Shown here one piece after another: positions 7,247 to 33,900 of a DNA stretch of 64,000 nt. This DNA is from a virus. Where the stretch lies: positions 1 through 64,000 of IMG/VR virus record IMGVR_UViG_3300022751_000017; one strand, 5' to 3'. The notes under the pieces were generated by a model. The model was not told where the DNA came from, ran no database searches, and saw nothing but the letters and a program-made list of their open reading frames with translations. The position numbers and the translations under genes are program-made. The first letter of the stretch is position 1. Each line of letters starts with the position of its first letter.

Positions 7247-7784
7247 TCAGCTAACTACACACCAATCTTCAGCCAGCATATCTGTCTGTGATGCCAGCCA
7301 ACCATTCACAATAGATCCATCAGCGGCCCTCATGCATATGTAGGCATTGAATTTTATTGTGCTCAACCCCCTGCTCTCCTGGCATTTCCTTGCTGTCACG
7401 ATTCTGGTAGTATTCCTTCACAGATGCCGGCAGACTCTTTACCTTCTCAATAACCATTGATATACTCAGGTCATCTGCAGGACGCATAAATATGAACATG
7501 TTCTTGCCGTTCCATCCTTCTCAAGCAACCATTTTACCATTTTTAAGAGCTAGTATGGCAAAGTCGAAACCAAGGCGCCCTTCAGTTATCTCAAAGTCAT
7601 CCCGAGTGCTGTATTTATCTATCCATGGGCTGTTCAGGATATCACCCACCCTAGTGAACACCTTTATGTCATCTGCAGGGTCACTACTTACATTCCCATC
7701 GGGAATAAACCAGTATCCCATCCACTCAGGCAATTTAACCTTTTTGCCAGACGCCATTTCGATAATTGCTTCTTGTAAATTCAT
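7247..7784 (-). pseudogene. disrupted tandem DUF2829 (Tad2-like) protein
   Basis: FDFAILALKNGKMVA*EGWNGKNMFIF ... [14 protein letters not shown]; in-frame TGA at 7521-7523 and a +1 frameshift, probably in the G5 run at 7367-7371. Confidence 0.8.
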
Positions 7785-7832
7785 CTTGTGTTTATTGGTT
7801 CACCTATACACCATAAGGTTTTAGATTGTTAG

Positions 7833-8063
7833 TTAATCCCACTTGAATGGGTTTTTAGCTTTTACCTGATTGATAAATCCGAGCACCCCCATCATAATTA
7901 AACTGGCTAATAGCACTAGAACAATAAGAATATAAGACAATGGGTTATATGGATTCAGCCGCTTGGCAACAAAAAATCCCCGGCCAAGTTTATCCATCCG
8001 TTTGGTGTTATCAATTTCCTGGATAACACGTAGCTGCTTGAGTATTTTTACATTAAAATTCAT
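7833..8063 (-). CDS. small membrane protein
   Basis: RLNPYNPLSY plus one TM helix plus NPFKW. Confidence 0.65.
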   Translation of the reverse strand: MNFNVKILKQLRVIQEIDNTKRMDKLGRGFFVAKRLNPYNPLSYILIVLVLLASLIMMGVLGFINQVKAKNPFKWD

Positions 8064-8073
8064 ATTCTGTTTT

Positions 8074-8478
8074 TTAGTAGTGCTTATTTATCTTATCGTA
8101 TATCTTCTCTGTAAGGTAGCTTATTAAGTAAGCATAGGCCTCATCAGACACCAGCAACTTAAGTTTCATTCCTATGCGGTCCATCACAAAGGTGACGATG
8201 TGGAATATCTCATGCGCCAGGGTAGCAAAGTCACGAGCGCTACTTGGCAGATGCCGGAGCCTTATGAAAGAACCATTGGTGCTGAACATAACTGCACGAC
8301 CAATTGCAGTGGTGCTGGCATACCGGCAAAGCTCTATATCCGCAACAGAAAGGTCCAGCTTATCCAACACTGCACCCAGCTGCTCATCACTCTGCCCTAT
8401 GCTTACCATTACATCAAATGGATATACCTCTAAGGGTATTATGAAATTAAGAGATGGTGGTGTTTTCTTCTTGCTCAT
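8074..8478 (-). CDS. HExxH metallopeptidase-like phage protein
   Basis: LAHEIFHIV ... DEAYAYL. Confidence 0.65.
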   Translation of the reverse strand: MSKKKTPPSLNFIIPLEVYPFDVMVSIGQSDEQLGAVLDKLDLSVADIELCRYASTTAIGRAVMFSTNGSFIRLRHLPSSARDFATLAHEIFHIVTFVMDRIGMKLKLLVSDEAYAYLISYLTEKIYDKINKHY

Positions 8479-10124
8479 TGGTTGATGGTTTTTATTTGCT
8501 CAAGCGCTGCGTGAACCATATCTATTCGCTTACCTATAAACTGCATGACGTGGGTTGTCATTGAGTTACCGAGCGCTGCGTATCTCTTACTGTCAGATGC
8601 GCCAGGGATATCAGTATAGTTATCAGGGAATCCCTGCAGGCGCTCACACTCCAATGGTGTAAGCCGGCGAACCAGTGTTTTGTAAATTACAGCAGGGGTT
8701 TTACTTTTGTCTAAAGTTGGGGTCACATTTCCTACCGAATCTCCTTGCTGGTGCGAATTTTGCCATCCAAATGCTAATGGAGACTCCTGAACAATAATTG
8801 GCTCGTGACCGTGTGCTTGCGCCCTCAAGGTTCCAGTTATACCGTTCTCATAAACAGACATAACACTACCGTCTTGATCATCAAGAATTATTGGTTGAGA
8901 TACCAGCAATGGTACGTGCCCATTCTTTACCAACGGGTGACACGGGTCTCCGGGTTGAGGGTTTGACCCATTAGTAGGCGATGTAACCTGAGTAGTGTCG
9001 AATATCACATGACATACTGCATGCCTGTCCACCTTAGTCAATGTAGGTGACTGTTCTACTTTTATACCCATACCATTCCCTCCGTTTTCTGGCTGACGGC
9101 CAATTGCTACAGATTGTATTCCATATGCCGGGGTAGACACAACCAAATCCGTGGCATCCTTATAATCTCGCTTCTTTAGCGCTGAGGCAGTGTCGGAGGC
9201 AGTGTAATCACCGAATCCTCTTTGTCTAAATCCAACCTCTACTTGCAATGGAACAAATAATGGCGCACCGCTATTGATATGCTGATTTTCAAGACCCATT
9301 TTATCACCATAAGCACAATTGAGCGTAGAGGCCAACTCTGCCGGCCTACTCTGCCGGCCTACTCGTTCACTATCTCCTCCAACGCTATTCTTAGAATTTC
9401 CGGGAGTGCCTTTCCTCTTCTTTCCGCCCGGCGTAAAATCCCTTCGCAAGCTGTCTTGCTCAAACAATACCGCAACAGGTGGTCTCCAGTCTTTTCCAAG
9501 ATGTCCGACAACAAAGATTCTTCTGCGTCTCTGTGGCACTCCGAAATATTGGCTATCAAGTATGCGCCATGCAATAGAGTAAAATTCACCTTCGATGGCA
9601 CCGGATTTTTCAAAGTCCTGGGCTGCGATATCCCTTCCTGTGAAGGCGGAAAGAATGCAAGCAAAGTCGCTTGATGATCCTTCTTCTTCTGATTCTTCAT
9701 CGCTTTCGTCTCCGTTTTCATCTGTTCCTGAAGTAATAACCCCCGGAACATTTTCCCAGACGAACCACTTGGGCCGTTTTTCAATAAGAATTCTGACAAA
9801 TTCAAGGGCGAGGTTACCACGCTCATCACCCAGTCCTTTTCTGAGTCCGGCAATACTGAATGACTGGCAGGGAGTTCCTCCAACGAGAAGATCGAATTGT
9901 TCATCATGATATGTTTTTAAGTCTCTTAATTTAAGCATGTCACCCAGATTAAGTACATGCGGATAATGATGCTGCAGCACTTCGCTTGGAAAGTCCAGTC
10001 GTTTGCTATAGTCATTCTCAGGGTCATACTGACTGAACCATACAGGCTTCCAACCGAGCGGATGCCATGCTACGGTCGCAGCCTCTATACCAGAGCAAAC
10101 TGATGCGTATTTTAATTTTGCCAT
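8475..10124 (-). CDS. dcm: DNA (cytosine-5) methyltransferase with expanded variable region
   Basis: motif I SVCSGIEA, IV GGTPCQSFS, VI WENVPG, VIII QRRRRIF, IX RRLTPLECERLQGFP, X YAALGNS; start set at MAKLKY. Confidence 0.92.
   Translation of the reverse strand: MAKLKYASVCSGIEAATVAWHPLGWKPVWFSQYDPENDYSKRLDFPSEVLQHHYPHVLNLGDMLKLRDLKTYHDEQFDLLVGGTPCQSFSIAGLRKGLGDERGNLALEFVRILIEKRPKWFVWENVPGVITSGTDENGDESDEESEEEGSSSDFACILSAFTGRDIAAQDFEKSGAIEGEFYSIAWRILDSQYFGVPQRRRRIFVVGHLGKDWRPPVAVLFEQDSLRRDFTPGGKKRKGTPGNSKNSVGGDSERVGRQSRPAELASTLNCAYGDKMGLENQHINSGAPLFVPLQVEVGFRQRGFGDYTASDTASALKKRDYKDATDLVVSTPAYGIQSVAIGRQPENGGNGMGIKVEQSPTLTKVDRHAVCHVIFDTTQVTSPTNGSNPQPGDPCHPLVKNGHVPLLVSQPIILDDQDGSVMSVYENGITGTLRAQAHGHEPIIVQESPLAFGWQNSHQQGDSVGNVTPTLDKSKTPAVIYKTLVRRLTPLECERLQGFPDNYTDIPGASDSKRYAALGNSMTTHVMQFIGKRIDMVHAALEQIKTINQ
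9359..9907 (-). CDS. nested alternative-frame ORF inside the methyltransferase (M.EcoHK31I beta-like)
   Basis: 182 aa, same strand, different frame; LSDILE...YCLSKTACEGILRRAERRGKALP. Confidence 0.65.
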   Translation of the reverse strand: MMNNSIFSLEELPASHSVLPDSEKDWVMSVVTSPLNLSEFLLKNGPSGSSGKMFRGLLLQEQMKTETKAMKNQKKKDHQATLLAFFPPSQEGISQPRTLKNPVPSKVNFTLLHGAYLIANISECHRDAEESLLSDILEKTGDHLLRYCLSKTACEGILRRAERRGKALPEILRIALEEIVNE

Positions 10125-18836: not shown

Positions 18837-19007
18837 ATGAAAGAGATAAAGAGGTTATTTGTATATATATGGCAGCACATGTGGTTTAGTCATTGTGATT
18901 TATGTGATAAGCGCAGTAGTAGAGAATATATCATAGAATATAGTGGAATTGGGATCAATTTATGTCCTGAATGTTACGCTAAAGAAATGAAAGATAATGG
19001 GAAATAG
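18837..19007 (+). CDS. small Zn-finger protein (absent from the ORF track)
   Basis: 56 aa; CDLC...CPEC. Confidence 0.55.
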   Translation: MKEIKRLFVYIWQHMWFSHCDLCDKRSSREYIIEYSGIGINLCPECYAKEMKDNGK

Positions 19008-19839
19008 GCGCTATCATATACACATACCCTCATTCTCGGAATATGCATACCGCATGCTAATGGGTTTATCTGAGCAGCAGAAACTTCAGCTACATGAGGA
19101 CGAACAAAAAATCGTATCCTCTGCCAGGAACATAAGTAAGTTCACAGCACATGAGCCATTTGAGAAGATACTTCTGCTACTTACTAAGGTAGGATACGAG
19201 TGGGTGCTGCTTATGGGGCCTACAAAAGAGGCTATAGAGCAGGTGCACTTCGCCACATTCAACCAGTACGATTTTGAATCCAAGAGAGTAGATGCAATAA
19301 ATGCTGCAGCAAGAGAGCGTGTGTGCGCAGCATCCAGTCACCAGGTAATGCTTACGGCACATATGTGTGCACAGAACTGCCAGACCAGTGTATATAACCT
19401 CTCTCAGTACAGTAAGGACCTGGTAAAGGCCGGACGAAGCTTCAATAAAATGAAGACCACGGACGAAGAGTTGCAGGAAGCTACGGAGTCTTATCAGTAC
19501 ATGAATAGAGTGCTCTGCGCACAATTAAATAGCATGGACTGGGCGCTCAACACGCTGGGACTGGATCAGCAGGAGTTAAGGATATTATCTATCCTTTTTG
19601 ATAAGCAGACCAGCGCGCGGTCGCAGCAGGAAATATCGGAAGGAGCTCAACTGAAGGGGAAGAAGGCCTACCTGAAAAAATATCTGGATAAACTACAGGC
19701 AGATGGGCTCATAACCAGTGACAAGGATAACTCCGGGCGCATAAAGACCCGTAATCACTACTACTTAATAACCGGTAAGGGGATTGAGAAGATGATGAAG
19801 TATAGGTTGTATATTCACAAAAAAACTTTCAATAAGTAA
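18997..19839 (+). CDS. protein with C-terminal MarR-type winged HTH
   Basis: QELRILSIL...SQQEISE...YLDKLQADGLI...YLITGKG. Confidence 0.7.
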   Translation: MGNRRYHIHIPSFSEYAYRMLMGLSEQQKLQLHEDEQKIVSSARNISKFTAHEPFEKILLLLTKVGYEWVLLMGPTKEAIEQVHFATFNQYDFESKRVDAINAAARERVCAASSHQVMLTAHMCAQNCQTSVYNLSQYSKDLVKAGRSFNKMKTTDEELQEATESYQYMNRVLCAQLNSMDWALNTLGLDQQELRILSILFDKQTSARSQQEISEGAQLKGKKAYLKKYLDKLQADGLITSDKDNSGRIKTRNHYYLITGKGIEKMMKYRLYIHKKTFNK

Positions 19840-20858: not shown

Positions 20859-21884
20859 ATGAGCGCACAAGAACTACCATTTATCCTTGAAGACATAGTA
20901 GCTTCAAGAGAGACAATAAGAGCCACTTCAAAGAATTCAGATGCATTACGTAAGGTGCAGCTGAGGAGTATCCGTATCCGACCATGCTTCAATGCCCGGC
21001 GCCAAGGGTTCCACACAGAGCATATGTGGGAACTGCTGTTAGGTATACCAGACCTGGCAGAGGCTATCTTTCAGAACAATGGCCCTGCTACTCCTTTGCT
21101 GGGCGATATAACTGTAGATGGTGTATTCTACCAGACAGATGGAGAGCGCCGCATACGTGCCCTACGACACCTCATAAGAGAGGGTAAAACAGTGTACCCT
21201 AATGGAGATTCAGTAGATGAAGTGCTGGTACTGCTGAACCCAAGAAATACCACAGACCTGGAGCGCAAGAGAAAGGTGCTTACCACGGAAGATAACCTGA
21301 AGCTGCGTCCTATGGACAAAGCCTGGTTTTACAAGTCCTTTGAGACAGAAGGTGCTGGCATGACCCATGATGAGATAGCCAAGTTCCTCAATGTTTCCCG
21401 GCAATCAGTAGACAACTACATCCAAGCCTCGGAGCTTTCTCAGGAGGTGCAGGATAAGATAGACTGCGGAGAGATTACTATGACCAAGGCCCTGGCTGAT
21501 TACCGCGAAGCAAACCCTAAGCGTAAAACAAAGCTGGTAGAGGTAGATATAGAGTCTGGCGAAGTACTGGAGCAAAAGAAGCCAGAAGAAAAAGTCATGA
21601 ATGGTGACGAAGATGAATTCTTGGACCAGCAGGATAACAGCATATCATCTGCCGGTACGAAAGGTGGTCCAAAGGAAGGCGGCAGCGGAGAAGTAGTGAT
21701 CGGCAAGGATAGCATATACATGGATGGTCAGAAGCTGGCGCTGTGGAAGCAATTCGTAAACCGGTACGAGAAACTAAAGACCGAGATAATAATGGGCGCC
21801 ACACTAGAAAATGGGCACTTGCTGAAAGTTGACGACATGCTTGCGGAGAGGCTGAAAAATGAGTATAATTTAACCGTAAAATAA
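20859..21884 (+). CDS. ParB/Spo0J-like protein
   Basis: FNARR...DGERRIRA, then HTH THDEIAKFLNVSRQSVDNY. Confidence 0.8.
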   Translation: MSAQELPFILEDIVASRETIRATSKNSDALRKVQLRSIRIRPCFNARRQGFHTEHMWELLLGIPDLAEAIFQNNGPATPLLGDITVDGVFYQTDGERRIRALRHLIREGKTVYPNGDSVDEVLVLLNPRNTTDLERKRKVLTTEDNLKLRPMDKAWFYKSFETEGAGMTHDEIAKFLNVSRQSVDNYIQASELSQEVQDKIDCGEITMTKALADYREANPKRKTKLVEVDIESGEVLEQKKPEEKVMNGDEDEFLDQQDNSISSAGTKGGPKEGGSGEVVIGKDSIYMDGQKLALWKQFVNRYEKLKTEIIMGATLENGHLLKVDDMLAERLKNEYNLTVK

Positions 21885-21889
21885 AAACC

Positions 21890-22324
21890 ATGAACACATT
21901 TTCATTGAACATTATTACCCTGCAGCATCCGGACGGCAGCTACATATCATCATCCCCTCAATTATTGGATACTGAGGCATCTGGAGTTACAAAAGAAGAG
22001 TCCATAGAGCAATATAAAAAGCTTATCCCTTCTCTTATGCTGGATAAAAGAAATGACATGATCCAGTACCTTACTAAAGAAGGAATAGAGTTTGATATAA
22101 CGAGCATACCTTGCGTACTTAATGAAGTGGTAGCAGCATCTGTATCCAGTGATAGCACAGTAGATGTCTCACGTAAGCTTGAGATACTGCATCTGTATCA
22201 AAGAGTAGGCTACCCACAGGCAGAGCTATCGCTCTCCAGGCATTGTGAGCTACAGTATCTGGGAATGATAAAGGATATAGAACTCGACAAGGAAAAGCTC
22301 AGGCTTGAGCAGAAAATAAGATAA
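21890..22324 (+). CDS. HicB-like N-terminal domain protein
   Basis: DGSYISSSPQL...ASGVTKEESIE. Confidence 0.55.
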   Translation: MNTFSLNIITLQHPDGSYISSSPQLLDTEASGVTKEESIEQYKKLIPSLMLDKRNDMIQYLTKEGIEFDITSIPCVLNEVVAASVSSDSTVDVSRKLEILHLYQRVGYPQAELSLSRHCELQYLGMIKDIELDKEKLRLEQKIR

Positions 22325-22364
22325 TTTCACACAACAGAACACCGGTCAGGGCCGGATATATTTT

Positions 22365-22634
22365 ATGGAAACTAACCAAGACAAGACATCTGCACAATTA
22401 CATGGTAAAAAATTGATTGATTCAGTACAATATGAGGCTGAGGCGAGAGATTCCAGTATCCGTAAATCTTGCGAAGAAATGGCTAAAGAAAACGGATTTT
22501 CTGAAGATTTTGCCAGGGCGTGATATGCTTGGAGAATGTTTATCAGAACCAGCATACCAGGTAAGATTGATTATGAAGGCTTGAAGCAGCGATGGCTTAA
22601 GATTAAAGAATTAGGTGAGTTAAATCATGGTTGA
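22365..22634 (+). pseudogene. 89-codon ORF with internal TGA
   Basis: ...EDFARA*YAWRMF...; TGA at 22521-22523 and the frame continues to 22634. Confidence 0.5.
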
Positions 22635-22657
22635 TTTTCGGTTTGTTAAAATAGAGG

Positions 22658-22684
22658 GCTGCATGTTTCTACATGCAGCTTTTT
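22658..22684 (+). terminator. intrinsic terminator ending the rightward early operon
   Basis: GCTGCATGT-TTCT-ACATGCAGC followed by TTTTT. Confidence 0.75.
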
Positions 22685-22699
22685 ATTGTACAAATAGTG

Positions 22700-22725
22700 T
22701 AATTTTAACCCATTGGCGGAATTAA
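22700..22725 (+). repeat. left inverted repeat TAATTTTAACCCATTGGCGGAATTAA
   Basis: exact reverse complement of 30880-30905. Confidence 0.92.
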
Positions 22726-23042
22726 TCCCCGCTGGCAGGTGTTTATGAAAATGGATATACTTTCAACTTGGAGTGGTATCATCGCAAATTTATCCCCGGT
22801 ACATCCTGGAATTGTTCCGTTAGATATTTTTTCCAGACCCCGTCAAGAAGATAGTGATTTGAAATCATTGCATAAAAATTCTGACGAACTAGACTCGGAT
22901 AAGAAGCAGAAACTTGTTGAACAGCTATGGGGTCTTCAGAACCGACGATTTTCAGAAGGAGTGTAAGAAGCGTTTTCTGAGCCTCCACCTGAGCCTATCG
23001 CTTTTCCGTTTCCTTCTCTCCCAATATTGAAAAATAATTGAA

Positions 23043-23228
23043 ATGCAGCATCAATCAATTTTAGATAAAATAGATGTCCCGGAAACACTCATGGACATGA
23101 ATTTGCGGCTGAATATCATTCAGCTTATGTCTGATCCCTCAACAGATAAAGAACGTCAGCGCAGCAACATAAGAGTTGCACAGAAGTATCTGGCATCTTT
23201 ATCTAAATCTAAGTTGTTGAAGGATTAA
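23043..23228 (+). CDS. small hypothetical protein
   Basis: 61-aa ORF with A-rich start. Confidence 0.4.
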   Translation: MQHQSILDKIDVPETLMDMNLRLNIIQLMSDPSTDKERQRSNIRVAQKYLASLSKSKLLKD

Positions 23229-23466
23229 TCTTGCTTGATAATTATGGTGGGTGACTTACCCATTTACACGCAAGTCGCACTATTTAAATAAAACAGTATA
23301 TTTGAATATGAAAAAGTCTAAGATAACCATTGACCCGGATTTACCTCATAACCATATTTTATTTGTCCCTCTTGATCTACATGTGAACGTAGAGGAACGC
23401 TCAGAAGGTTTGCGCCGCCTTTTAAATCACCTCTTCCAAATAAAACCAATAGTATGAAAAAAAATG

Positions 23467-23847
23467 TCAAAACAGGACCAGGTCATCATCCACGGGAAAC
23501 CCATATTTCAGAGATACATCTGCCTGAACGTATTGACGCAAAGAAACTGATAGAAGACTTACGCCCATTCTTAAATTCGTGGATGAAGAAAGCACGACAG
23601 TAAAATTATCATCTCTAACTCTAGCCTCAAATAAATCTAGGTCTATTTTATTTGCACCTTGGGTTTGAATGAATGTCGTTAAGATTTCTCTAAACTCATC
23701 TATCTCATTAACCGGAACTGGGTTAATAGTGATTACATCGTAAATAAATCCATTTTCAGTATATTTAAATTGGCTTCCTATAAGGTGATTAAAAGATTGA
23801 CATACCTTTAATGCCTCTGCGTGAGGTAAGTATATTTCTGCTCCCAT
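23467..23847 (-). CDS. hypothetical protein (island cargo)
   Basis: 126-aa ORF. Confidence 0.6.
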   Translation of the reverse strand: MGAEIYLPHAEALKVCQSFNHLIGSQFKYTENGFIYDVITINPVPVNEIDEFREILTTFIQTQGANKIDLDLFEARVRDDNFTVVLSSSTNLRMGVSLLSVSLRQYVQADVSLKYGFPVDDDLVLF

Positions 23848-23880
23848 GTTATTACATTTTGATTAGACACCATAAATGTA

Positions 23881-23911
23881 AAAAAGGTTCACTCTTCTAG
23901 TGAACCTTTTT
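23881..23911. terminator. bidirectional terminator-like hairpin
   Basis: AAAAAGGTTCACT-CTTCT-AGTGAACCTTTTT. Confidence 0.65.
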
Positions 23912-24005
23912 ATTTTTCCTGCAATAAATCACCGACTTATACGCACTAAAAACATTTTTATGTTTAAAGTTGAAAACTTTAAACTATTTGGTTTAATTTC
24001 ACAAA

Positions 24006-24194
24006 ATGAAAACAAATAAACCGGACATAGACAAGCTCCGAACTATTAAAAACTATGCTGTCAAAGAGGGGGTCACCCCGGCTTATATTTATAAGCTGAA
24101 CAAGGCCGAAAAAATGGAGATAGTATCAATTGACGGGGTGCAGTTCGTGGATACGGATCAGTATCCAACGCTACCTACCAGGAAGGATAAATAA
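24006..24194 (+). CDS. small Xis/MerR-like HTH DNA-binding protein
   Basis: TIKNYAVKEGVTPAYIYKL...IDGVQFVD. Confidence 0.7.
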   Translation: MKTNKPDIDKLRTIKNYAVKEGVTPAYIYKLNKAEKMEIVSIDGVQFVDTDQYPTLPTRKDK

Positions 24195-24316
24195 AAAGGC
24201 AAAAGCCCATCAAGTTTGGCGACCGAGGGCTTTTGCTAGTAAGAATGACAGGCTATAAACCCATCTTCTCTGCAGCAAATGTAGAGGAAATTTTGTATTG
24301 CTACAAGATTTTCGTA

Positions 24317-25228
24317 ATGCATTGCATCAAGTCAAATTTTGATAAAGTGATGTATGCCCTAAAAGTGGTTTTAGGCAACGATTTTCCTATTGGTGGCAAT
24401 TACCTGCGCAGGGAGCCTAAGCCTTTATTTACCGACATGGAAGTGATAGCACTTAGCCTTACTGCTGAAGCGATGAGCATAGATAGTGAGTGCTATCTGT
24501 TCGCCAAGTTACAAGCCAATTACAGCGCTGATTTTCCGCATCTCATCAGCCGGAGACAGTATAATGACCGAAGAAAGATATTGTTCGATGTGCAGGAGCA
24601 TGTACGCGCTAAGATGGCTGATACGCTCAATGATATAACGGAGGTTTATGTCATAGACAGCATGCCTTTGGAGATATGCAAGATATCCAGGATGGAGCGT
24701 AATAAAATGGGCAAGGAAGAAGAGTACAGCTGTCCTGATAAAGGGTACTGCGCATCTCAGGACAAGTGGTTCTACGGGTACAAGCTGCATGGGGTGTGTT
24801 CTCCATCCGGGGTGATGCAGACAATAGATCTTACACGCGCCTCAGTGCACGACAATAAGTATCTGTATGACGTAGCAAGTAACCTAAGTGATTGCCTTGT
24901 CGTAGGAGACAAAGGGTATATTACCAACAAGGATGATGCTAAATCGCTCTCAATAAAAGAGGCTGGCGTATGCATGGAGGTTCCTTACCGGGCCAACCAG
25001 AAGGATAAGAAACCGCAGATGTATGTCATGAAAAAAATAAGAAAAAGGATTGAGACGGTATTTTCTCAATTGTGCGATCAGTTCATGATACAGCGCAACT
25101 ACGCTAAATCATTTACAGGCTATAAGACCCGGATATTGGCTAAGGTAAGCAGCATGACCGTCCTGCAGTACCTCAATAAGTTTGTGAATAATAGGCCGGT
25201 GGGGAACTTAAAGTATGCGCTGATGTAA
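24317..25228 (+). CDS. IS982-family DDE transposase (intact)
   Basis: DMEVIALSLTAE..IDSE, SRRQYNDRR, VIDSMP, YGYKLH, VGDKGY, RKRIETVFSQLCDQFMI; start MHCIKSNF. Confidence 0.93.
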   Translation: MHCIKSNFDKVMYALKVVLGNDFPIGGNYLRREPKPLFTDMEVIALSLTAEAMSIDSECYLFAKLQANYSADFPHLISRRQYNDRRKILFDVQEHVRAKMADTLNDITEVYVIDSMPLEICKISRMERNKMGKEEEYSCPDKGYCASQDKWFYGYKLHGVCSPSGVMQTIDLTRASVHDNKYLYDVASNLSDCLVVGDKGYITNKDDAKSLSIKEAGVCMEVPYRANQKDKKPQMYVMKKIRKRIETVFSQLCDQFMIQRNYAKSFTGYKTRILAKVSSMTVLQYLNKFVNNRPVGNLKYALM

Positions 25229-25265
25229 ACTCCTGTTTAATGGGAATAGGATGCAGTGCCCAATA

Positions 25266-25484
25266 TCAGCACCCCATATACTTCATAGCGCTCCCTGGAT
25301 CAATCGTGGTGTGATAAGCCGCTCGGATGCAGCCAAAATAATCAAGCTCATTCGTTATAAGCTCATCGCCTCTCCATGCCTCGTAAAGCACACGGCCGGC
25401 TACATTCTTGCGCTTGAACGTGAAGTCTGCAACAATGTACACATCGGTTGTCGCGTTAAGGCGGGTCCAGGGGATTTCGAACAT
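25266..25484 (-). CDS. small hypothetical protein
   Basis: 72-aa ORF. Confidence 0.4.
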   Translation of the reverse strand: MFEIPWTRLNATTDVYIVADFTFKRKNVAGRVLYEAWRGDELITNELDYFGCIRAAYHTTIDPGSAMKYMGC

Positions 25485-25498
25485 GGGCGTTAAGGTAA

Positions 25499-25527
25499 AA
25501 AGGGTGCGGGGATTAGCCGCACCCTTT
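25499..25527. terminator. terminator hairpin
   Basis: AAAGGGTGCGG/CCGCACCCTTT. Confidence 0.65.
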
Positions 25528-25557
25528 ATTTGTGTATCCGATTCGGATATTTTAGTA

Positions 25558-25866
25558 TTAATTTTGTCTTGAATTTAAACTGTACTCTCCCTCAACCCAC
25601 CCCCTGTTACTTTTAAGCCAATCCATAAGTTCAGACAAAAACCCTAAATTAATTGCATGTGCGCTTGCCTGAAAGTATGAAACCTGACTATCTTCTATCT
25701 CTCTAATAATGATAAGGCGTTTATGCATAGGTTTGTTTCCTTTCTTTACATACATGGTAGTTCGCCCTACCTTCTGTTTACTTCCTTCTATGATGCTGTC
25801 GCATATATCCATTCTGCTTTCTATGAAAGACATATCTATAGTGGGGATGTAATTATCTTCTAGCAT
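25558..25866 (-). CDS. hypothetical protein, possible toxin partner of the HicB-like gene
   Basis: 102 aa; start overlaps the stop of 25860..26222. Confidence 0.5.
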   Translation of the reverse strand: MLEDNYIPTIDMSFIESRMDICDSIIEGSKQKVGRTTMYVKKGNKPMHKRLIIIREIEDSQVSYFQASAHAINLGFLSELMDWLKSNRGWVEGEYSLNSRQN

Positions 25867-26222
25867 TCTGCAAGTTCTAATTGTTCATAATATTGCTCGC
25901 CAGTCTCCATAATTTGCTCCATAACTGGACTACTTTCCATGAACTCCATCGAATTATTAATGGGCTTCCATCCAAGTGAAATAAGCTCAGTTTCTATTCC
26001 TGATCCGTATTTTTGCGAGGCTATAAAAAAGCATTTAAGTGCTTCGTCTACTGCTGAGTTTGTTTCTTCCTCTGCCTTGACATAGGTTTTAAGTCCAAAC
26101 AAGGGGATATTAATTGCAAGTGTGTTTTCTGAAATTTGCTTACGCCAGATGGGCATAACTACAGATATTTTCATGCTTTTATCTTCCCTTAAAACTTCTA
26201 TGCTGGCTTCTGTGTTTCCCAT
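25860..26222 (-). CDS. HicB-like protein
   Basis: LAINIPLFGLKTYVKAEEETNSAVDEALKCFF...LISLGWK. Confidence 0.55.
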   Translation of the reverse strand: MGNTEASIEVLREDKSMKISVVMPIWRKQISENTLAINIPLFGLKTYVKAEEETNSAVDEALKCFFIASQKYGSGIETELISLGWKPINNSMEFMESSPVMEQIMETGEQYYEQLELAEC

Positions 26223-26660
26223 AATAGGCTATTTAAGTTGGTTAGATATTTAGCAAACAAGTATAAATATCATACCTGCTATTTTGCTTTTCATTTCAAA
26301 AGTAGTTCGTTTTCTTGTAGTAACAAAGTTAAATAGCACAATGGCAATACATTTGTTTTATGACAATTCCAATAGTTTTCGAGCATTGTGCAAAACTTTA
26401 AAGCTATAACAATCATCATCCCATCAGGGATACTTTTTACATTAATAGCTAAAATCATAAGATATGGATATCAAGTAGCAAATGGAGTGCCACATGGCTG
26501 CGATACCTCTACGTGCTGCGATTGCCCGTTATGGTCTGTGAATGTTATGTCTATAATTGTGCGCATGCTATCATCGTATTCTGTCGGTGTCACAGTGTCT
26601 CAAACATGAACCAAAGATAAAAGTAGCCCTTGGTTTTATCAGGGCTATTTTTTTACATTT

Positions 26661-27095
26661 ATGTTGTCTAATCAAAATGTAACTATTATGGTAGAAATTA
26701 CCGAAGGTCATCTCATCAATTTGAAGGTTGATATGAATGATGCATTCATGGGTGCTACAACAAGAGAGCAGGTCACATTGTCCTATGATCTCATAGTTCC
26801 TCCATCGGAGCCGCAAAATGTAATTCTATATCTTACCTACTTTCAGTCAACGTCAAGCATAGAAGGTGATGACTTTGTCTTTAAACTTCAATCGGTATGG
26901 GAATATAAACTTTCTCCAAAACTTAACATCACACCAAAAGATGTTTATGAATGTGTTGTCAAAACTCAAAAGCATATGCAAGAAATATCTTCTGCTATCT
27001 TTTCAAAACAAAAATCATTTATTGAGATAAGAATTCCTGCTTTTGAACACGAAGTTGATGAAATATCTTCTTCGCTTCAGAGAATGATTGAGTAG
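26661..27095 (+). CDS. hypothetical protein, possible SecB-like fold
   Basis: 144 aa; beta-strands followed by a long helix and IPAF; fold call speculative. Confidence 0.45.
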   Translation: MLSNQNVTIMVEITEGHLINLKVDMNDAFMGATTREQVTLSYDLIVPPSEPQNVILYLTYFQSTSSIEGDDFVFKLQSVWEYKLSPKLNITPKDVYECVVKTQKHMQEISSAIFSKQKSFIEIRIPAFEHEVDEISSSLQRMIE

Positions 27096-27217
27096 TTTTT
27101 TCTTTTGGATATTTAACTACAACAATCATTGATTTCTTTTCTTTCCTGGGTATGGTTACCTTATTTTTCATGTTGATGGTTTTATTTGGGAGAGGGGGCA
27201 AAAATAGCTGTCAGAAT

Positions 27218-27427
27218 TTACAGTATGTGCTTTCTCAGTCGATCTATAAGACACATCCAATAATCATGGGATGCAGTTGCACCCTTTGCAAACAGTAGTG
27301 GATGCGGATTCTGGAGAGCTGGCGTATGGATTTGGGATAGTGACTTAGTTTGTACCGCTATTCCCATGGCGGATAGTTTACTTTCAGAAATAGTAATGTC
27401 AGATGCCGTCTTTAGTGTGCTTTGCAT
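27218..27427 (-). CDS. small hypothetical protein
   Basis: 69-aa ORF with A-rich start. Confidence 0.4.
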   Translation of the reverse strand: MQSTLKTASDITISESKLSAMGIAVQTKSLSQIHTPALQNPHPLLFAKGATASHDYWMCLIDRLRKHIL

Positions 27428-27668
27428 AACAAAAATGTTTTAAATTTGTGATGCAATTTTATTTAAAGCGAAAAACCTCCCCACCTGCTAAGTGGGGTTT
27501 TTCGTTTGTGGCTTAAAGGTAATCATATTTAAAAATACTTTTCAGTTTTTCACCTGTATAAAAATGTGAGAAATATTTTTAGCTTTGCAAATTACCTTTT
27601 AAAATGCTATACGTATGAATATATAAAAAACATTGGCGACTTTTATCTTTTATACGCTTTTCCCTAAA

Positions 27669-28096
27669 TTACCACCTTTACAAAAGCTTATCCACGCTCG
27701 ATATAAATAGATATGCCTAAATTATGGCGTAACTGTGTCTTTATGCGTGGATGGGTTGTGGTAAACCTAAGGGATGCACAGAGAACTACAGTTACGCCTT
27801 GTTTTTTTCAAACGGCTGCAAGGTAAATGTATTTTGCTAATGCTTTATGTTTAAATTTGCCGGTACACAACAAACCAGATAAACACATATGGATAGATAA
27901 AAAACTGCATTCCGAGAAGATTATTGCACCTTGAATTACCACAGTTTGAATTGCAAATTCCTTCCTTACACAAATGACTATGACGATGCGCCGCATGGCG
28001 TAGTTGTGTCTTTGTGTAAGAGGCCGTGGTAAGCCTAAGGTGCAAGGAATAACGACTACGCTATTTTATTTTATAACGGCCACCTTAAATTACCAC
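27669..28096 (+). ncRNA. duplicated structured RNA cassette (GTGGTAA loop with TTACCAC targets)
   Basis: stems 27726-27736/27788-27798 and 27998-28007/28052-28061, each with a U-rich tail; complementary sites at 27669, 27936 and 28090. Confidence 0.6.
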
Positions 28097-28098
28097 AA

Positions 28099-28752
28099 AT
28101 GAAGAAGCCACTAATTGCTATCCTGGCGCTGCTCAGCACTGGGGTAAAAGCGCAGGATATTGCGCCAAAGAATCACACCAAAAATCAACACGTATTTGAG
28201 ATATATGCAAATTACGGCATAGGGTTAAGTACATCCATGTCCGGGAATGCACTTTCTAATACTACAAATGAAAAATGGACAATTAAAGATGTTCCGTCCT
28301 ATTCTGGCGGAGCCTCCATTTACATCATAAAGAGGCTGAATGTCGGTATATCTGCGCGCTCGTCTGTGTGGAATACGACATCTAAGCTAAGCGACAATAT
28401 TACGGGTCCTACGGTATCTCCCAGGGTTACTACAGGCAAGACTTCGGTACTCTCTGTTTCTGCCTTTGCAAATTATAATCAGCCCATTGGTAAAGGTGTT
28501 ATCTATGTCGGAGGATCTGTTGGGTATGCCATTGCCAATGGTGACACGAAGCATCTTGCCAAAGGGAAAGGCCGCGATATGAATGGCCATATAGGCTATG
28601 CTCATCCTGTAGTAGGCCAAATATTATGGGTCACAGCTGAAGCCGGTATGTCCCAGGCAAAGATCACTCCCGATGGTCAGGTATTCTCGATAAAGCGAAT
28701 ATATTCTGTCACTAACTATCCGGTTTCTCTTGGATTAAAGGTCAGGATTTAA
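28099..28752 (+). CDS. outer-membrane beta-barrel protein (OmpA/OmpW-like)
   Basis: signal peptide ending VKA/Q, alternating amphipathic strands, C-terminal YPVSLGLKVRI. Confidence 0.75.
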   Translation: MKKPLIAILALLSTGVKAQDIAPKNHTKNQHVFEIYANYGIGLSTSMSGNALSNTTNEKWTIKDVPSYSGGASIYIIKRLNVGISARSSVWNTTSKLSDNITGPTVSPRVTTGKTSVLSVSAFANYNQPIGKGVIYVGGSVGYAIANGDTKHLAKGKGRDMNGHIGYAHPVVGQILWVTAEAGMSQAKITPDGQVFSIKRIYSVTNYPVSLGLKVRI

Positions 28753-28762
28753 AACGTATGGC

Positions 28763-29251
28763 ATGATAGTAAAGATTATTCCAGAGGATAAGTACAGCCT
28801 ATTTTATAAAAAGGAGACTTTAGCTGCTCATGTGGGCATTGGGATGATAGTAGCTGGGGGTGTGGTGCTTCCGTTATTAGGGACTACACCTGGTATGTTC
28901 AGAATGATGTATTTGGGCGCCGGGATATTTTCGGCAATATGGGTCCATGCAATAGCTGAAGATCAAAACAGAGAGCCCTTATGGCTTTCAATAGCGGCAT
29001 TCCTGTTCCCTGTATTTATGCTTATTGTGATGGGTTATTCCAGGAAAATGAATCTAGTGTTTTCTATTGATAATTCATATAGCGAAGAAGACAAGTATTA
29101 TTCATTGAAGGGCTACGCTGATAAATTTGTAGAAAAAGGAAAGGTTGAAGAGGCGGAGATTGTATACCGCTATATCATCAGCAACCTTTTACATGATGAG
29201 GAAGATGAAGTATTGTATAGTAAACTTTTAAATAAGCTTACGCATGTCTGA
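28763..29251 (+). CDS. membrane protein with TPR-like C-terminus
   Basis: 3 TM helices; GKVEEAEIVYRYII. Confidence 0.6.
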   Translation: MIVKIIPEDKYSLFYKKETLAAHVGIGMIVAGGVVLPLLGTTPGMFRMMYLGAGIFSAIWVHAIAEDQNREPLWLSIAAFLFPVFMLIVMGYSRKMNLVFSIDNSYSEEDKYYSLKGYADKFVEKGKVEEAEIVYRYIISNLLHDEEDEVLYSKLLNKLTHV

Positions 29252-29975
29252 ATATATAAGTCAACACGATAATAAAGCGTATAATCATTATGCTATTTTC
29301 GGAGTAATAACAATGGTTGTAACTCAATGCTATCTGAGTTACGTCACCTATCTACATGGAGGCATTAATGGGGTACTTGATGTGTTTTTATCTATATTCA
29401 GTGTTCTTGTTTTATGTGTCGGGATTGCATATATCGCTTTCTGGTCTTTAATAGTTGATAGATTCCCTAAAAAAGGTGATTTAAATCATCCCAAAATGAT
29501 AGTAATATTTGGATTTTATGCTTTTGTGTCAGCTATAGGGTATTTAGTCATGCTGTACTTTTGGAATGATGTTATAGAGGACATAAGCAATCCCATTTTT
29601 ATCTACACTATTTTTTCGTTGCTGATATTAGCAATTGAATGTTTTTTAGTACGCAGAAAATTGAATTCAAGAATTAAAGAAGTGCACAAAGAGTACATAG
29701 ATGTGTATTCTTATATTGAAGAAGAAATCGAAAATATAAAAGAAGACAAATTGAGTTACGGCTATGCCTTCCAGCGATTAGTGGATAAAAGATTCAAGAA
29801 GCATTATGAAGATTATGCAATGGAGCATTTGAGAGTTAATTACTGCATGTTGACTACGGATGAAAAAGTAAAGGATTTCGAAAAATTTTCGCAACAATTT
29901 GAGTTGTTACATCCTGTAGTCATAAAAAATATTATTTATTTTCCCACGTATGGGTATAGGAAAATAAAGGCATAA
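29244..29975 (+). CDS. 4-TM membrane protein
   Basis: hydrophobic N-terminal half, soluble C-terminus. Confidence 0.65.
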   Translation: MSEYISQHDNKAYNHYAIFGVITMVVTQCYLSYVTYLHGGINGVLDVFLSIFSVLVLCVGIAYIAFWSLIVDRFPKKGDLNHPKMIVIFGFYAFVSAIGYLVMLYFWNDVIEDISNPIFIYTIFSLLILAIECFLVRRKLNSRIKEVHKEYIDVYSYIEEEIENIKEDKLSYGYAFQRLVDKRFKKHYEDYAMEHLRVNYCMLTTDEKVKDFEKFSQQFELLHPVVIKNIIYFPTYGYRKIKA

Positions 29976-29995
29976 CATTCCATTATATTTGTAGA

Positions 29996-30496
29996 ATGAA
30001 ATTCGATAAAATACAGCGGCTATCAAATATTGATTTCATTACTCATTACAGTGAAATGTGGTGGTCATTATCATTATATCCTGCAGAATATAATCATTCT
30101 AAGGTAGGTGAAATATCTATAAAGATAACCAGGGGCGAAGTGACGAGAAAATATCATCCAGTCGACTATTTGAATTACATTATTGAATACTATACCCAAA
30201 AAATGGGTCAAACAACTAATTTGTATGATCAGCACGTAATGGCGATAACGCTTAGGGCTACCATATCAAATCAAATTGAAAGTTTTAAAGAATTATTGGT
30301 AGGCGCAGATGAGTCGACTGAAAAATATGATTTTTCAAGCCAGATGAATAAGGCTAACAATATAGCTGAGTTATCTAAAGGGAAAATAGATATAGCCGGA
30401 TACAGGCGAGAAAGATACAAGTTTTGGTATGGTGTTTTTACTGGCGCAGCAACTGCGTCCATAGGTTTGCTCACGCTCTATTTCAACACAAAATAA
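29996..30496 (+). CDS. hypothetical protein with C-terminal TM anchor
   Basis: 166 aa; FWYGVFTGAATASIGLLTLYF. Confidence 0.6.
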   Translation: MKFDKIQRLSNIDFITHYSEMWWSLSLYPAEYNHSKVGEISIKITRGEVTRKYHPVDYLNYIIEYYTQKMGQTTNLYDQHVMAITLRATISNQIESFKELLVGADESTEKYDFSSQMNKANNIAELSKGKIDIAGYRRERYKFWYGVFTGAATASIGLLTLYFNTK

Positions 30497-30658
30497 ACCG
30501 CAGTAATTATGATTACGCCAAGAAATCCAATAGTAAATCCTTTAATAAACTGTTTCATATTAGCCCAAAAGAATTAATTCCAGAATCCATGAGAAGATGG
30601 AGCGGTTATCGTGGAGTGAGTGCCGTAATTTTTACCGAAATAAGATTTGGTAACGACC

Positions 30659-30853
30659 TTATATCTGCCCCTTAATTTCTTCTGGGGTGAGTAATTTAGC
30701 TAAAAAAGTATCTTTCCCTAACGAAAATATTATAATTCTATCTTCTTCAGCTCTCCCAAAGTTGAAGTCAACCATGTGAGTTAGCCCTTTGGACTGTAGT
30801 CCCTTTGTTATAGATTTCATCTTACGCTGCCATCCTGTTTCTTTATCTTCCAT
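30659..30853 (-). CDS. small hypothetical protein
   Basis: 64-aa ORF reading inward from the right IR. Confidence 0.45.
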   Translation of the reverse strand: MEDKETGWQRKMKSITKGLQSKGLTHMVDFNFGRAEEDRIIIFSLGKDTFLAKLLTPEEIKGQI

Positions 30854-30879
30854 TGGTTAATGTGGGGGTTTGTGAAAAT

Positions 30880-30905
30880 TTAATTCCGCCAATGGGTTAA
30901 AATTA
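30880..30905 (-). repeat. right inverted repeat TTAATTCCGCCAATGGGTTAAAATTA
   Basis: exact reverse complement of 22700-22725. Confidence 0.92.
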
Positions 30906-30933
30906 GGTAATTTTATCTTGAAAATAAAAATTT

Positions 30934-33900
30934 ATGCCGTTTAAATTTACGCAGTCTTTTAATAAGGGAATGAATATGGATTTCAGTGAATTGCGCCTAC
31001 CACAAGATGCTGTGCAATTTATGAAAAACATGACTGCCAATGTAAACCAGAACACTGGGACTCCTGCCCAGTCTGGAGCAAATATGGATGTATTCTCTCC
31101 TCTGGAAGGGAATGCAGTGCTATCAGTAGCCTTACCTGGTGGGACTAACTATTGTGTGGGGTTCTATAGTAGTGAACAGACAAATGAGGGATATTTCTTT
31201 TTATGGAATAGCAACATGGACCATTCCATATGGGTAATAAGAGGAGATAGTGGACTCTGTGAATTGGTATATCATGGTAATTTGCTGCCGCTACAGCTGA
31301 ATCCACTATATTTTATAGCAGAAGGCAGGTGCACTCTGGAGCTCAGGTCTTATGTAGACCCGGTAACAGGGCTTGAAACAAATTTTAAGTTCCTGATATT
31401 CACTAACAATACTATTCAACAATACTATATATCAGTAGAAGATTCTATAAACACAGATTCATTCACTGCACCGACAGGATATTTCGCCGGCGCCGGCACG
31501 TTTTATGATCCAATTACCTTGATACATCTGGGTGTTCCTACGCCTATAAGTGACATAGGAATAATCAAGGTGCCAATATCAGGTGCTGATGTTGGATTGC
31601 AGAATCAAACAATCAATCAGGCATTTCAATTCAGAAATAAAACCGTAGACGTTTTTGGACGAGAAAGCGAGCATGGCATTATAAGTCAAGTGGCGATAGA
31701 TCGTGTATCTGGTGGATGCTATGGCAGCAGCAATGCGGAGTCAAGATGTTTTGATATTACGTTTGATGCCGGGAATCCATTGGTGGATACCATATCCATA
31801 GAATATAGGACATGGGCTGGCAATGATACGGCTGCAGCACTACAAACCGGGTGGATAAAGTACGCCACCATAAATAAGTGGATAAATTCTACTGGGCTGC
31901 AATGGTATGAGCGGTCTCCCAATACTGTATATTATAATCCAGTAACAAATCTGATTACTTATAGATTTTGTGCGGATCAGCAAAATATTCCCATACCAAC
32001 AGAAGAAACGGCGCGGACAGAGCCTGGATTACCGAGATTATCCAGTGGGGTATTCTCGGTAAATAAGCGAATAGGTTTAGCTAATAACGTAAGGAATTTT
32101 GAGCCTATTAGTCCGGTAGAGACTGACAAAATAAGTTACAGTGCTATTATCCCAGAAGCTCCTGATTGCGGGATATTACCTATGCGTAAAATAGTTGCTT
32201 ATGCCTACATGTACAATTTTGCTAATGTACAGGCTGGGTATATGCAATACGAATTAATAGATGGGGTCAAGACTTATATATGGGGTAACCAGCGAGGTCA
32301 ATGCGGTGATGACACTGGCAATGCGGTGAGATTAGATCAGGTTTTTGGCGATCAGGATAATCCTGGATTTATATTCTATCTGGCTGGAACCCAATACAAC
32401 TGTGTTACTCAGTGGGGCGGCTTATTGCCATCTGGTGTTTTTACTCCATCTCCCATAATGGATGGCACCGGGGCATTCAATAGGAATATTCTTGGAGAGC
32501 CGGTATGCCAAATAACGATAATGGCACCGCCTGGTAAGTATCTCCTGAGGGGCGCCTCTCACAAGGCTAAATTAACAGATCCGGACTATCAAAACACCTC
32601 TACGTATATAGGAGGAATAATAGAGGTTAATGATCTTTATTCAACAGGGGATCCTTCAAATTATTCTTTCAATCCGATAAAGGAAATAGAAATAGATTGT
32701 ACATCAGGCGATGTTTATTTTAGAAATCCTACAGATCCAGCATTTCTGATTATTGACAATAGCTTTGGTGATACATGTATGGTAGATGGATATTTGTGTG
32801 AACAGACTGGGGAGGGTGTTCCTGTAGAGATGAACCCGATTAACTTCTCATCATACCCAGATAATGCGATGCCATGCTATGGAAGTTGGTTTACCGACCA
32901 TAATGGGTTCTTCTTTGGTGGGTGTCCTACGCAGGGTGTATATTTAGTAATAGCCTCTGATATATGTACGGGAACTTATGCTGTAGGAACCATTCTCAAC
33001 AGCGGGATTGATGGAACATTTAAAGGCATATTGCATGGGGATGGTTCTGGAGACGGCAGCTACTGTACCGAATTAAGAAGTGGCAATTGGAAAAATAAGG
33101 TTTATATATCACGTTCCGGCAATGTATTCCCAGCTAATGCGCGTCGTAAAATAACTCAGCAAATAAACTTGTGTGGTGCTGAAGGAGGGGTATCCAATGT
33201 GCCTGTAGTGATGACTAAGGGTGCTATATCATTTACGGACAGTGAAGGGATAGCAACAGTTATTGCGCATAACCGGACTAACTATGCAGCTGTGCCCTGG
33301 AATACATTGACATATCTCAACCCTATAGGTGTGCCAATATTCACAATAAATATACCGAATTACGGAGTGTCGCCATATGCAGATGATAAATTGATAGTGA
33401 CGCAACGGGGATATTGTCGGTGGACCAATTGCGGTGGCTGCGTACCTGCGGTCCCTGATCAGAATATAATATATCAGCCATGCGGTGGCTCAAGAGATAC
33501 TACACTTTCTGATGTCACCATATCTCTTGAAAATATAAATGTTCAAGGGGTGCAGACTGGTGGTAAGTATGCGATGTGTTATTGGCTGGTTGATAATATT
33601 GGCCGGCGCACATTTTCTCAGGTGAGGCAAGGGGAGTCTGGATTTGTCAGCATGCCTAGTTTGAATGATATAGGATATTATAGGCTGCCCCAGATTGGAT
33701 ATACTATAGACCCGTCATTTACAGTGCCGTCCATTTTTAAGAAATTAATATTCGGGGTATCTGCTAATACTAATTTCACAGACTTCTTTTCGTGGTCTAT
33801 TGATTACGTGCAGCAGGTTGATAACACAGGCAATACCAATACGGTCAATCCCACACAGACTAGGATATACTACGGCAGCCTTAATGAGTATAATAAGCAA

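Follow-up and report, generated by a model that had tools for sequence, protein, structure and literature searches.

IS982-family elements are regarded as insertion sequences of about 1 kb whose sole gene is that of the transposase, with terminal inverted repeats of about 18-35 bp that begin with 5'-AC and short direct target duplications of 3-9 bp that abut the ends. Insertion sequences (IS) that carry additional genes fall under the ISfinder concept of the transporter insertion sequence (tIS), in which one IS-type transposase and a pair of inverted repeats enclose passenger genes without a role in transposition; the concept has been established for other IS families (PMC9330008). In our literature search, in which IS982 was paired with passenger genes or with tIS, no element of this kind was described for the IS982 family. 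Here, we have analysed positions 1 to 64,000 of the IMG/VR virus record IMGVR_UViG_3300022751_000017 (this stretch is called the window; the whole record is 91,186 bp long). The record is that of a phage, encoding DnaB, a methyltransferase, ParB, GroEL, GroES and large structural proteins. We propose that the island at 22708-30897 is likely a single passenger-carrying IS982-family transposon (a tIS or unit transposon), which lies intergenically between phage modules.

The island is bounded by a perfect 26-bp inverted repeat, TAATTTTAACCCATTGGCGGAATTAA, with its left arm at 22700-22725 (+ strand) and its right arm at 30880-30905 (− strand). The repeat had been pointed out in an earlier note on this stretch, and we found that its two arms are the sole copies in the 91-kb record. 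The note had suggested a comparison with the termini of IS982 elements. We collected relatives of the transposase encoded in the island from IMG/VR, GTDB (one genome per species) and metagenome contigs, and inverted repeats were sought around each. The inner 18 bp of the arms, ACCCATTGGCGGAATTAA, agree at 17 of 18 positions with ACCCGTTGGCGGAATTAA, the terminal repeat of about 75 related 1-kb IS982-family elements. These canonical copies are 967-1040 bp long, the nearer ones end with ACCCGTTGGCGGA(A/G)TTAA or close variants on both sides, and their target duplications are mostly 7-9 bp, with the first base directly at the ACCC. The lone mismatch to the consensus is an A at position 5, and the same A is found in the left ends of three related elements (L004, L005 and L103). 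Since the core differs from the related-element consensus at only one position, the window repeats are, as judged by this match, the cognate ends of this IS982 subgroup, and the island thus has the ACCC-type terminal repeats of the family as a perfect 18-bp pair.

The core is also rare. With up to three mismatches, these two sites alone were found in the window, and none of 100 shuffles yielded two; with up to four mismatches, the whole record added to the two arms a single weak site with four mismatches, at 87477. The exact 18-mer had one match in IMG/VR, at the end of an unrelated contig. A second, decayed end at 27628 was considered and dropped, as its 12 of 18 matching positions correspond to the chance frequency in the island. 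Judged by the position of the ACCC, the element proper is 22708-30897 (+ strand), 8,190 bp from ACCC to ACCC. Its left inverted repeat (IRL) is 22708-22725 and its right inverted repeat (IRR) is 30880-30897, and the outer 8 bp of each arm (22700-22707, TAATTTTA; 30898-30905, TAAAATTA) are best placed in the flank. The end-junction strings are IRL + TCCCCGCTGGCAGG on the left and GTTTGTGAAAAT + IRR on the right.

Between these ends lies an IS982-family DDE transposase of 303 amino acids (aa) at 24317..25228 (+ strand). That it is intact, as the earlier note had held, is supported by a score of 220.4 bits to the IS982 equivalog NF033520 of NCBIfam (cut-off 130, E 2.6e-65) and by matches to the Pfam families DDE_Tnp_1_3 (E 1.4e-19) and DDE_Tnp_1. 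Moreover, 69 positions show at least 96% conservation in a set of 28 relatives, and the window transposase retains 67 of them, including the acidic residues expected of a DDE enzyme. The open reading frame (ORF) spans 24233-25228. The ATG at 24317 (MHCIK...) is the likely true start, being aligned with the MH(C/N)IK of the relatives, and the in-frame extension up to the ATG at 24245 or the TTG at 24233 is probably a non-coding leader. Identity of the transposase is 56-67% to its five closest relatives and 58-63% to a sister clade of canonical elements. The left arm lies 1.59 kb away from the gene and the right arm 5.65 kb, in agreement with the earlier note. The note had also seen no convincing inverted repeat beside the transposase, and we found there just a weak, decayed IRR-like remnant at the stop codon (25226..25248, + strand; TAAACTCCTGTTTAATGGGA vs TTAATTCCGCCAATGGGT in an alignment to canonical insertion sequences), which is absent from the other clade members in the alignment. 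We also considered a composite transposon, in which two IS copies surround the cargo. A sensitive tblastn of the island revealed no second transposase or transposase remnant. As the island has one transposase and no remnant of another, it is not a composite of two insertion sequences.

The distance of the transposase from its ends is no accident: the elements of its five closest relatives (L022, L023, L025, L039 and L103) all have ends detached from the transposase gene and passengers that differ among them. L022, in a metagenome-assembled genome (MAG) of Flavipsychrobacter, is 3,933 bp long, with 908 bp from the left end to the transposase, 2,122 bp from the transposase to the right end and a target duplication of ATGTATA (7 bp). 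L023, in Terrimonas ferruginea DSM 30193, is 2,411 bp (about 0.8 kb and 686 bp on the two sides) and is flanked by TACTACTT (8 bp); L025, in Chitinophagaceae UBA1930, is 2,261 bp (about 0.7 kb and 664 bp) and is flanked by TGGTATAGT (9 bp); L103, on a 525-kb metagenome contig, is 3,273 bp (752 bp and 1,621 bp) and is flanked by TATATATA (8 bp). For L039, a partial element in a Ferruginibacter MAG, the right end lies 300 bp from the transposase and the left end was not found. The ends of L022, L023 and L025 are perfect to the consensus, and the left end of L103 differs at two positions. In a maximum-likelihood tree of 30 transposases, from which L103 stands apart as not included, the window transposase forms a clade with those of L022, L023, L025 and L039 (support 100/98), and its sister clade consists of canonical 1-kb insertion sequences of Chitinophagaceae (Ferruginibacter and Ilyomonas; L024-L037).

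The relatives, from soil bacteria, are chromosomal, with one copy in each of three genomes searched. For L023 an empty site could be identified: in a sister genome of the same genus (G157), ...caatggctactTACTACTTataactt... is uninterrupted and has one TACTACTT, at the place where L023 has TACTACTT, the 2.4-kb element and TACTACTT again. This empty site, together with the clean duplications, shows that the lineage transposes with its passengers as one unit. The passengers of the relatives include a ClpP-like SDH-type serine protease homologue (in L022; PF01972, E 3.6e-16), lipoprotein-like proteins, of which L022 and L103 have one in common, and small membrane proteins. Next to L023, in its left flank (7745-9244), we observed a short repeat of about 45-90 nt that has dozens of copies in the Terrimonas genomes G004 and G157 and looks like a repetitive extragenic palindromic (REP) element or a MITE (miniature inverted-repeat transposable element). 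As a separate observation, canonical members of the subgroup are expanded, with at least 9 copies in an Ilyomonas MAG (L026-L034) and at least 12 in Galbibacter orientalis (L083-L098), each with its own 7-9-bp duplication; from these copies, canonical members of this IS982 subgroup appear to be currently active in Bacteroidota.

We argue that the window island is built in the same way. It has a single transposase, one cognate pair of ends and enclosed passengers without transposition-related families, as in a unit transposon, and movement of such a unit is seen in the relatives through the duplications of L022, L023, L025 and L103 and the empty site of L023. At 8,190 bp and with about 15 extra ORFs, it departs from the size of about 1 kb and the sole transposase gene of the family, and is therefore filed as a passenger-carrying derivative rather than a plain insertion sequence. 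The first of the readings in the earlier note, an IS982-derived element with cargo, is thus supported by the cognate ends (17/18) and by the clade of passenger-carrying elements that transpose as units. In such a mechanism, the 303-aa DDE transposase would recognise the two 18-bp ends and move all DNA between them, and the passengers would be separate small transcription units punctuated by terminators. The window copy would have arrived in the phage as a unit, or have grown after its arrival, and we infer that it is still mobile. It is best read as the largest known member of the passenger-carrying IS982 lineage.

That the island is accessory to the phage is indicated by its absence from a related phage and by its base composition. 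The G+C content of the island is 0.30-0.40, as against 0.40-0.47 in the flanks, with the transposase and the first gene of a four-gene operon as exceptions. The sole related phage record retrieved, G002 (IMG/VR, loci L016-L021, found by ParB alignment; 72.6 kb, 30-58% amino acid identity), has homologues of genes on both sides of the island and none of the island genes. In G002, about 3.1 kb lie between the homologue of 18997-19839 and the large structural gene. Its ParB gene lies elsewhere, on the opposite strand and near the contig end. Given this different place of the ParB gene and the short distance to the large gene, the region from 19.9 to 30.9 kb of the window can be regarded as variable. 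Further searches gave no matches: megablast of 21000-32500 against GenBank phages, a search with the ParB protein and one with a 25-mer from the left flank in IMG/VR, and, in metagenome contigs, a search with the N-terminal 500 aa of the 1616-aa protein encoded next to the island.

Besides the transposase gene, the island has about 15 ORFs of at least 49 aa as cargo, and 8 of these reach 100 aa or more, so that the estimate of about 14 cargo genes in the earlier note was a fair one. Inward from the left end lie three small ORFs on the + strand (22745-22966, 73 aa; 23043-23228, 61 aa; 23308-23457, 49 aa) without family matches. They are followed by ORF X (126 aa, 23467..23847, − strand), which faces outward from the centre of the element, with a terminator next to it (23881-23911), and by a 62-aa ORF (24006..24194, + strand) directly upstream of the transposase. 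Beyond the transposase, three ORFs of 102, 120 and 55 aa (25558..26458, − strand), the two longer ones also without family matches, converge on it, and a bidirectional terminator (25499-25527) lies between them and the transposase. ORF Y (26688..27095, + strand) has about 135 aa, or 144 aa if it starts at 26661. A 69-aa ORF (27218..27427, − strand) has a terminator-like hairpin (27479-27497) just beyond it on its upstream side. The four-gene operon (28099..30496, + strand) encodes membrane-type passengers of 217, 162, 243 and 166 aa, and a 64-aa ORF (30659..30853, − strand) points inward from the right end, with its ATG 26 nt inside IRR.

The first operon protein (217 aa) has a signal peptide and looks by eye like an outer-membrane beta-barrel. 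The 162- and 243-aa proteins are of the multi-pass membrane type, with transmembrane segments in the former, and the 166-aa protein has a C-terminal transmembrane segment (tail-anchored). For the 243-aa protein, weak SLATT matches were found (PADLOC RTasSLATT, E 5.6e-5; NCBIfam SLATT_5, E 4.5e-7, which is under its cut-off). Going by these features, the membrane operon may be an exclusion or abortive-infection-type module. Apart from this weak SLATT signal, Pfam, PHROGs, PADLOC and NCBIfam gave nothing for the passengers scanned, and no transposition-related families; these scans covered the island ORFs other than three small ones (26291-26458, 27019-27201 and 25251-25493). Within the same scope, no recombinase family, serine or tyrosine, was found. 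The operon is preceded by a leader of about 600 nt in which two tandem homologous hairpins (27726-27805 and 27997-28065, within 27700..28070, + strand) lie about 271 nt apart. Read from the sequence, compensatory changes distinguish the two stems, GGCGTAACTGT...ACAGTTACGCC and GGCGTAGTTG...CGACTACGCT, and an Rfam scan of the island, these hairpins included, gave no match. There are 20 terminator-like sites in the island vs 6.4 expected from shuffles. Since such sites are about three times commoner than in the shuffles, we consider the passengers to be many small independent units.

Two pairs of inverted repeats are nested within the outer pair and collinear with it; neither had been described in the earlier note. 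The first, I1 (34 nt, 97%; 23852-23885 and 26649-26682), is the shared upstream or leader sequence of ORFs X and Y, and the second, I2 (38 nt, 82%; 23430-23467 and 27158-27195), lies just 3' of both. The pairs bracket the two ORFs, both of which point outward from the centre. Each I1 arm is placed between a terminator and a start codon, and each I2 arm comes just after a stop codon. No homology was detected between the coding sequences of X and Y. The arrangement resembles a single gene "slot" whose 5' and 3' flanks are shared and which is present twice, in mirror orientation and with different contents. Such a slot could have originated from an old inverted duplication about the transposase core in which the insert was replaced, or from cassette exchange via the shared flanks. 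Recombination between the I1 arms could also invert the 2.76-kb central segment. We considered whether I1 is a general boundary motif of phages and dropped this idea, because the five IMG/VR matches to its 18-mer are chance matches inside coding DNA. A further inverted repeat of 25 nt (84%; 26613-26637 and 27626-27650) brackets 1,038 bp with ORF Y and the 69-aa ORF, and is of borderline significance.

Several observations weigh against the proposal that the whole 8.2 kb is one transposed unit, and the missing target duplication is what weakens the case of the window copy most. The insertion site is intergenic. On its left, 17 nt from the element end, an intrinsic-terminator hairpin (22647..22690, + strand) closes the upstream regulator/ParB block, and on its right follows the leader of the 1616-aa structural gene. 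No clean duplication flanks the element, and TA alone abuts both ends. The 8-bp flanks are inverted with respect to each other (TAATTTTA and TAAAATTA), and read as direct copies they match at 6 of 8 positions. A direct copy of the left flank, TAATTTTA, is found at 30908..30915 (+ strand), 10 bp beyond the right end and in the leader of the 1616-aa gene, so that the right junction reads: 64-aa ORF, right end, TAAAATTA GG TAATTTTA, then the ATG at 30934. The inverted flanks and the extra copy at 30908-30915 had been correctly described in the earlier note, as had the geometry of the right arm, which ends 28 nt before this ATG; the true element end, 30897, is 36 nt away from it. The right end may influence the expression of the adjacent gene.

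As the 8-mer TAATTTTA and its complement occur just 8 times in the 91 kb, with 3 of these occurrences at the element ends, the three copies are not there by chance. The sequence that borders the element on the right, ATTTTATCTTGAAAATAA, is similar to the homologous gene's leader in G002, ATTTTTCTTGAAAAATAA, and the right flank therefore looks native to the phage; a likeness of this flank to 21856-21887 was dropped, as that copy is inside the ParB coding sequence. Three histories fit the junctions. The element could have entered a short AT-rich palindrome, duplicating 2 bp; it could have produced an 8-bp duplication, after which a palindrome of 10 bp was inserted at the right junction; or one end could have been rearranged later, for instance by an adjacent deletion. 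We would like to add that about one in eight of the canonical copies likewise lacks a duplication.

The size and the content of the island add to these points. The element exceeds every relative in length by a factor of 2-3.6. Neither a second copy nor an empty site of it was found, and no phage relative was close enough for such a comparison. None of its passengers is present in any other element fetched. Searches in a sample of 151 Chitinophagaceae genomes (two proteins tested) and in GenBank phages (three proteins tested) found no passengers either, and the 243-aa protein is unique among 5.8 billion proteins in a word-based search. The cargo thus consists of ORFans. As the passengers are unseen elsewhere, some of the interior may postdate the insertion, and the nested inverted repeats, as read from their arrangement, point to internal rearrangement or cassette exchange.

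These observations could also be explained if an element of 2-4 kb of this clade landed in an ancestor of the phage and most of the interior was added later by phage recombination or moron gain, so that the 8.2 kb, although both ends are still intact, does not or no longer move as a unit. The size of the relatives (just 2.3-3.9 kb), the ORFan passengers without link to any other element, the many self-contained transcription units with their excess of terminator-like sites, the cassette-like common flanks around the unrelated ORFs X and Y and the absence of an abutting target duplication would all be consistent with such a fossil. On the other hand, two ends without any difference over 26 bp, which agree with the consensus at all but one of 18 positions, and a transposase with nearly all of its conserved residues kept, are unlike neutral decay. 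Moreover, passenger content differs completely among the bacterial relatives, which are demonstrably mobile, and passenger turnover is therefore normal for the lineage. For these reasons we consider a fossil with later accretion rather unlikely, and prefer a passenger-carrying transposon.

The region upstream of the transposase bears on a second alternative. The 62-aa ORF found there had been described in the earlier note as an Xis-like partner of the transposase. Language-model features in the Atlas (0.94) and predicted structures (TM 0.74-0.76) bring it close to clusters of HTH_17, the excisionase- or MerR-like helix-turn-helix (HTH) proteins, and to this extent the description stands. However, it does not match the PF12728 profile, and it has no Pfam family (even at E up to 1), no PHROGs-annotated family and no NCBIfam family; we thus term it HTH_17-like rather than a member. 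Nor is the partnership conserved. In L022, L023, L039 and L103 the equivalent position is held by a coiled-coil protein of 155-169 aa and of unknown family, to which no homology of the 62-aa ORF was detected (hhalign probability 0.1%); an Atlas search with this protein of the relatives was uninformative. From the model comparisons, a small DNA-binding protein beside the transposase is plausible.

What is conserved in the leader is a terminator-like hairpin between the upstream ORF and the transposase (24199..24237, + strand), which we identified by alignment and folds of the window, L023 (about 9890-9928), L039 (about 2142-2172), L022 (about 9824-9863) and L103 (about 9871-9899). Across the clade the sequence of the stem changes yet still pairs, and the loop, AAGTTTGGCGACCGA, is largely conserved. 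Two smaller hairpins before the transposase start (24266..24312, + strand) are partly conserved in L022 and L023. Insulation of the transposase gene from outside transcription by a hairpin is a common arrangement in insertion sequences, and the hairpin at 24199-24237 probably acts as such an insulator or terminator, shielding the transposase gene from transcription that enters from upstream. Its loop resembles the core of the terminal repeat, GTTGGCGG. Given this likeness, the hairpin could be a transposase-binding or regulatory site besides a terminator.

The HTH_17-like protein invites the idea of a domesticated switch, in which the phage uses the transposase, perhaps with this protein, to invert, excise or exchange the segment and thereby alter the expression of the accessory genes or of the 1616-aa gene. 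The ends are inverted in orientation, the large gene starts 36 nt from the right end, an excisionase-like small protein adjoins the transposase, and the nested inverted repeats of 34 and 38 nt could allow inversion by homologous recombination. Yet in bacterial chromosomes the elements with this architecture are plain insertions, marked by target duplications and, in one case, by an empty site, and the HTH protein is not conserved among the clade members. Programmed inversion is not known for DDE transposases of the IS982 family. We thus regard a switch as very improbable.

Finally, it is hardly credible that the 26-bp copies are phage promoters or operators that merely resemble IS ends: although they lie 20-26 nt before the ATG of two small inward-facing ORFs (22745 and 30853) and the outer 8-mer TAATTTTA is found directly upstream of two other gene starts, this reading is largely refuted by the recurrence of the 18-bp core as the terminal repeat of dozens of 1-kb elements from unrelated genomes, by the cognate transposase between the arms, by the absence of further copies in the 91-kb genome and by the lack of detectable homology between the two downstream end-proximal ORFs.

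Taken as a passenger-carrying transposon, the island adds such a lineage to the IS982 family, which is not known for one within the literature searched. The mobile relatives also show that transposases of this kind can act on ends as far as about 2 kb from their gene, and in the phage copy they may do so over several kb. As the transposase clade is restricted to Chitinophagaceae, it points to this family as the host, and the phage is probably a Bacteroidota phage infecting Chitinophagaceae. More tentatively, it is conceivable that Chitinophagaceae harbour an active and so far undescribed lineage of IS982-family unit transposons that shuttles between host chromosomes and phages, and that it is represented here by an 8.2-kb mobile island with about 15 ORFans and a SLATT-like membrane module. 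If this were true, it would provide phages with a transposon-based route for gaining and swapping accessory genes, and would give a direct host link for an uncultured phage.

According to one report, insertion sequences are badly tolerated by phages, which also make weak vehicles for such elements (PMC3429520). An intact cargo transposon of 8.2 kb inside a phage is unusual for this reason; this one makes up 9% of the phage genome, sits precisely at the boundary of modules and suggests how phages might acquire accessory genes. Compared with canonical IS982-family elements (IS982, IS1187, ISAba825 and the sister clade), the window element has a transposase of the same NF033520 family and the same 18-bp ACCC ends, and the targets are likewise AT-rich, with 7-9-bp duplications in the relatives. 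Canonical elements, however, are about 1.0 kb long; their left end precedes the start codon by about 86 nt and their right end overlaps the stop codon, whereas in the window the two distances are 1.6 and 5.65 kb and about 15 ORFs lie between the ends. The closest likeness in architecture is to the passenger-carrying relatives, which belong to the same clade and have detached ends, passengers on both sides of the transposase and the leader hairpin in common with the window element; they differ from it in being 2.3-3.9 kb long and chromosomal, in having clean duplications and in carrying mostly the coiled-coil protein of about 160 aa, and they have no passengers in common with it.

In its general design the window element resembles the tIS of other IS families, with one IS-type transposase and inverted repeats around passengers that have no role in transposition. 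An IS982-derived MITE in Cardinium, of about 240 bp and without genes, is mobilised by a transposase supplied in trans (PMC9769881). It demonstrates mobilisation of IS982-type ends that do not adjoin the transposase gene, likewise in a Bacteroidota host; in the window, the transposase is instead inside the element, together with the cargo. The island is also like the moron or hyperplastic accessory regions of phages in its low G+C, its ORFans with their own terminators, its position at a module boundary and its absence from G002. Unlike the island, such regions are not normally bounded by transposon ends with the cognate transposase inside.

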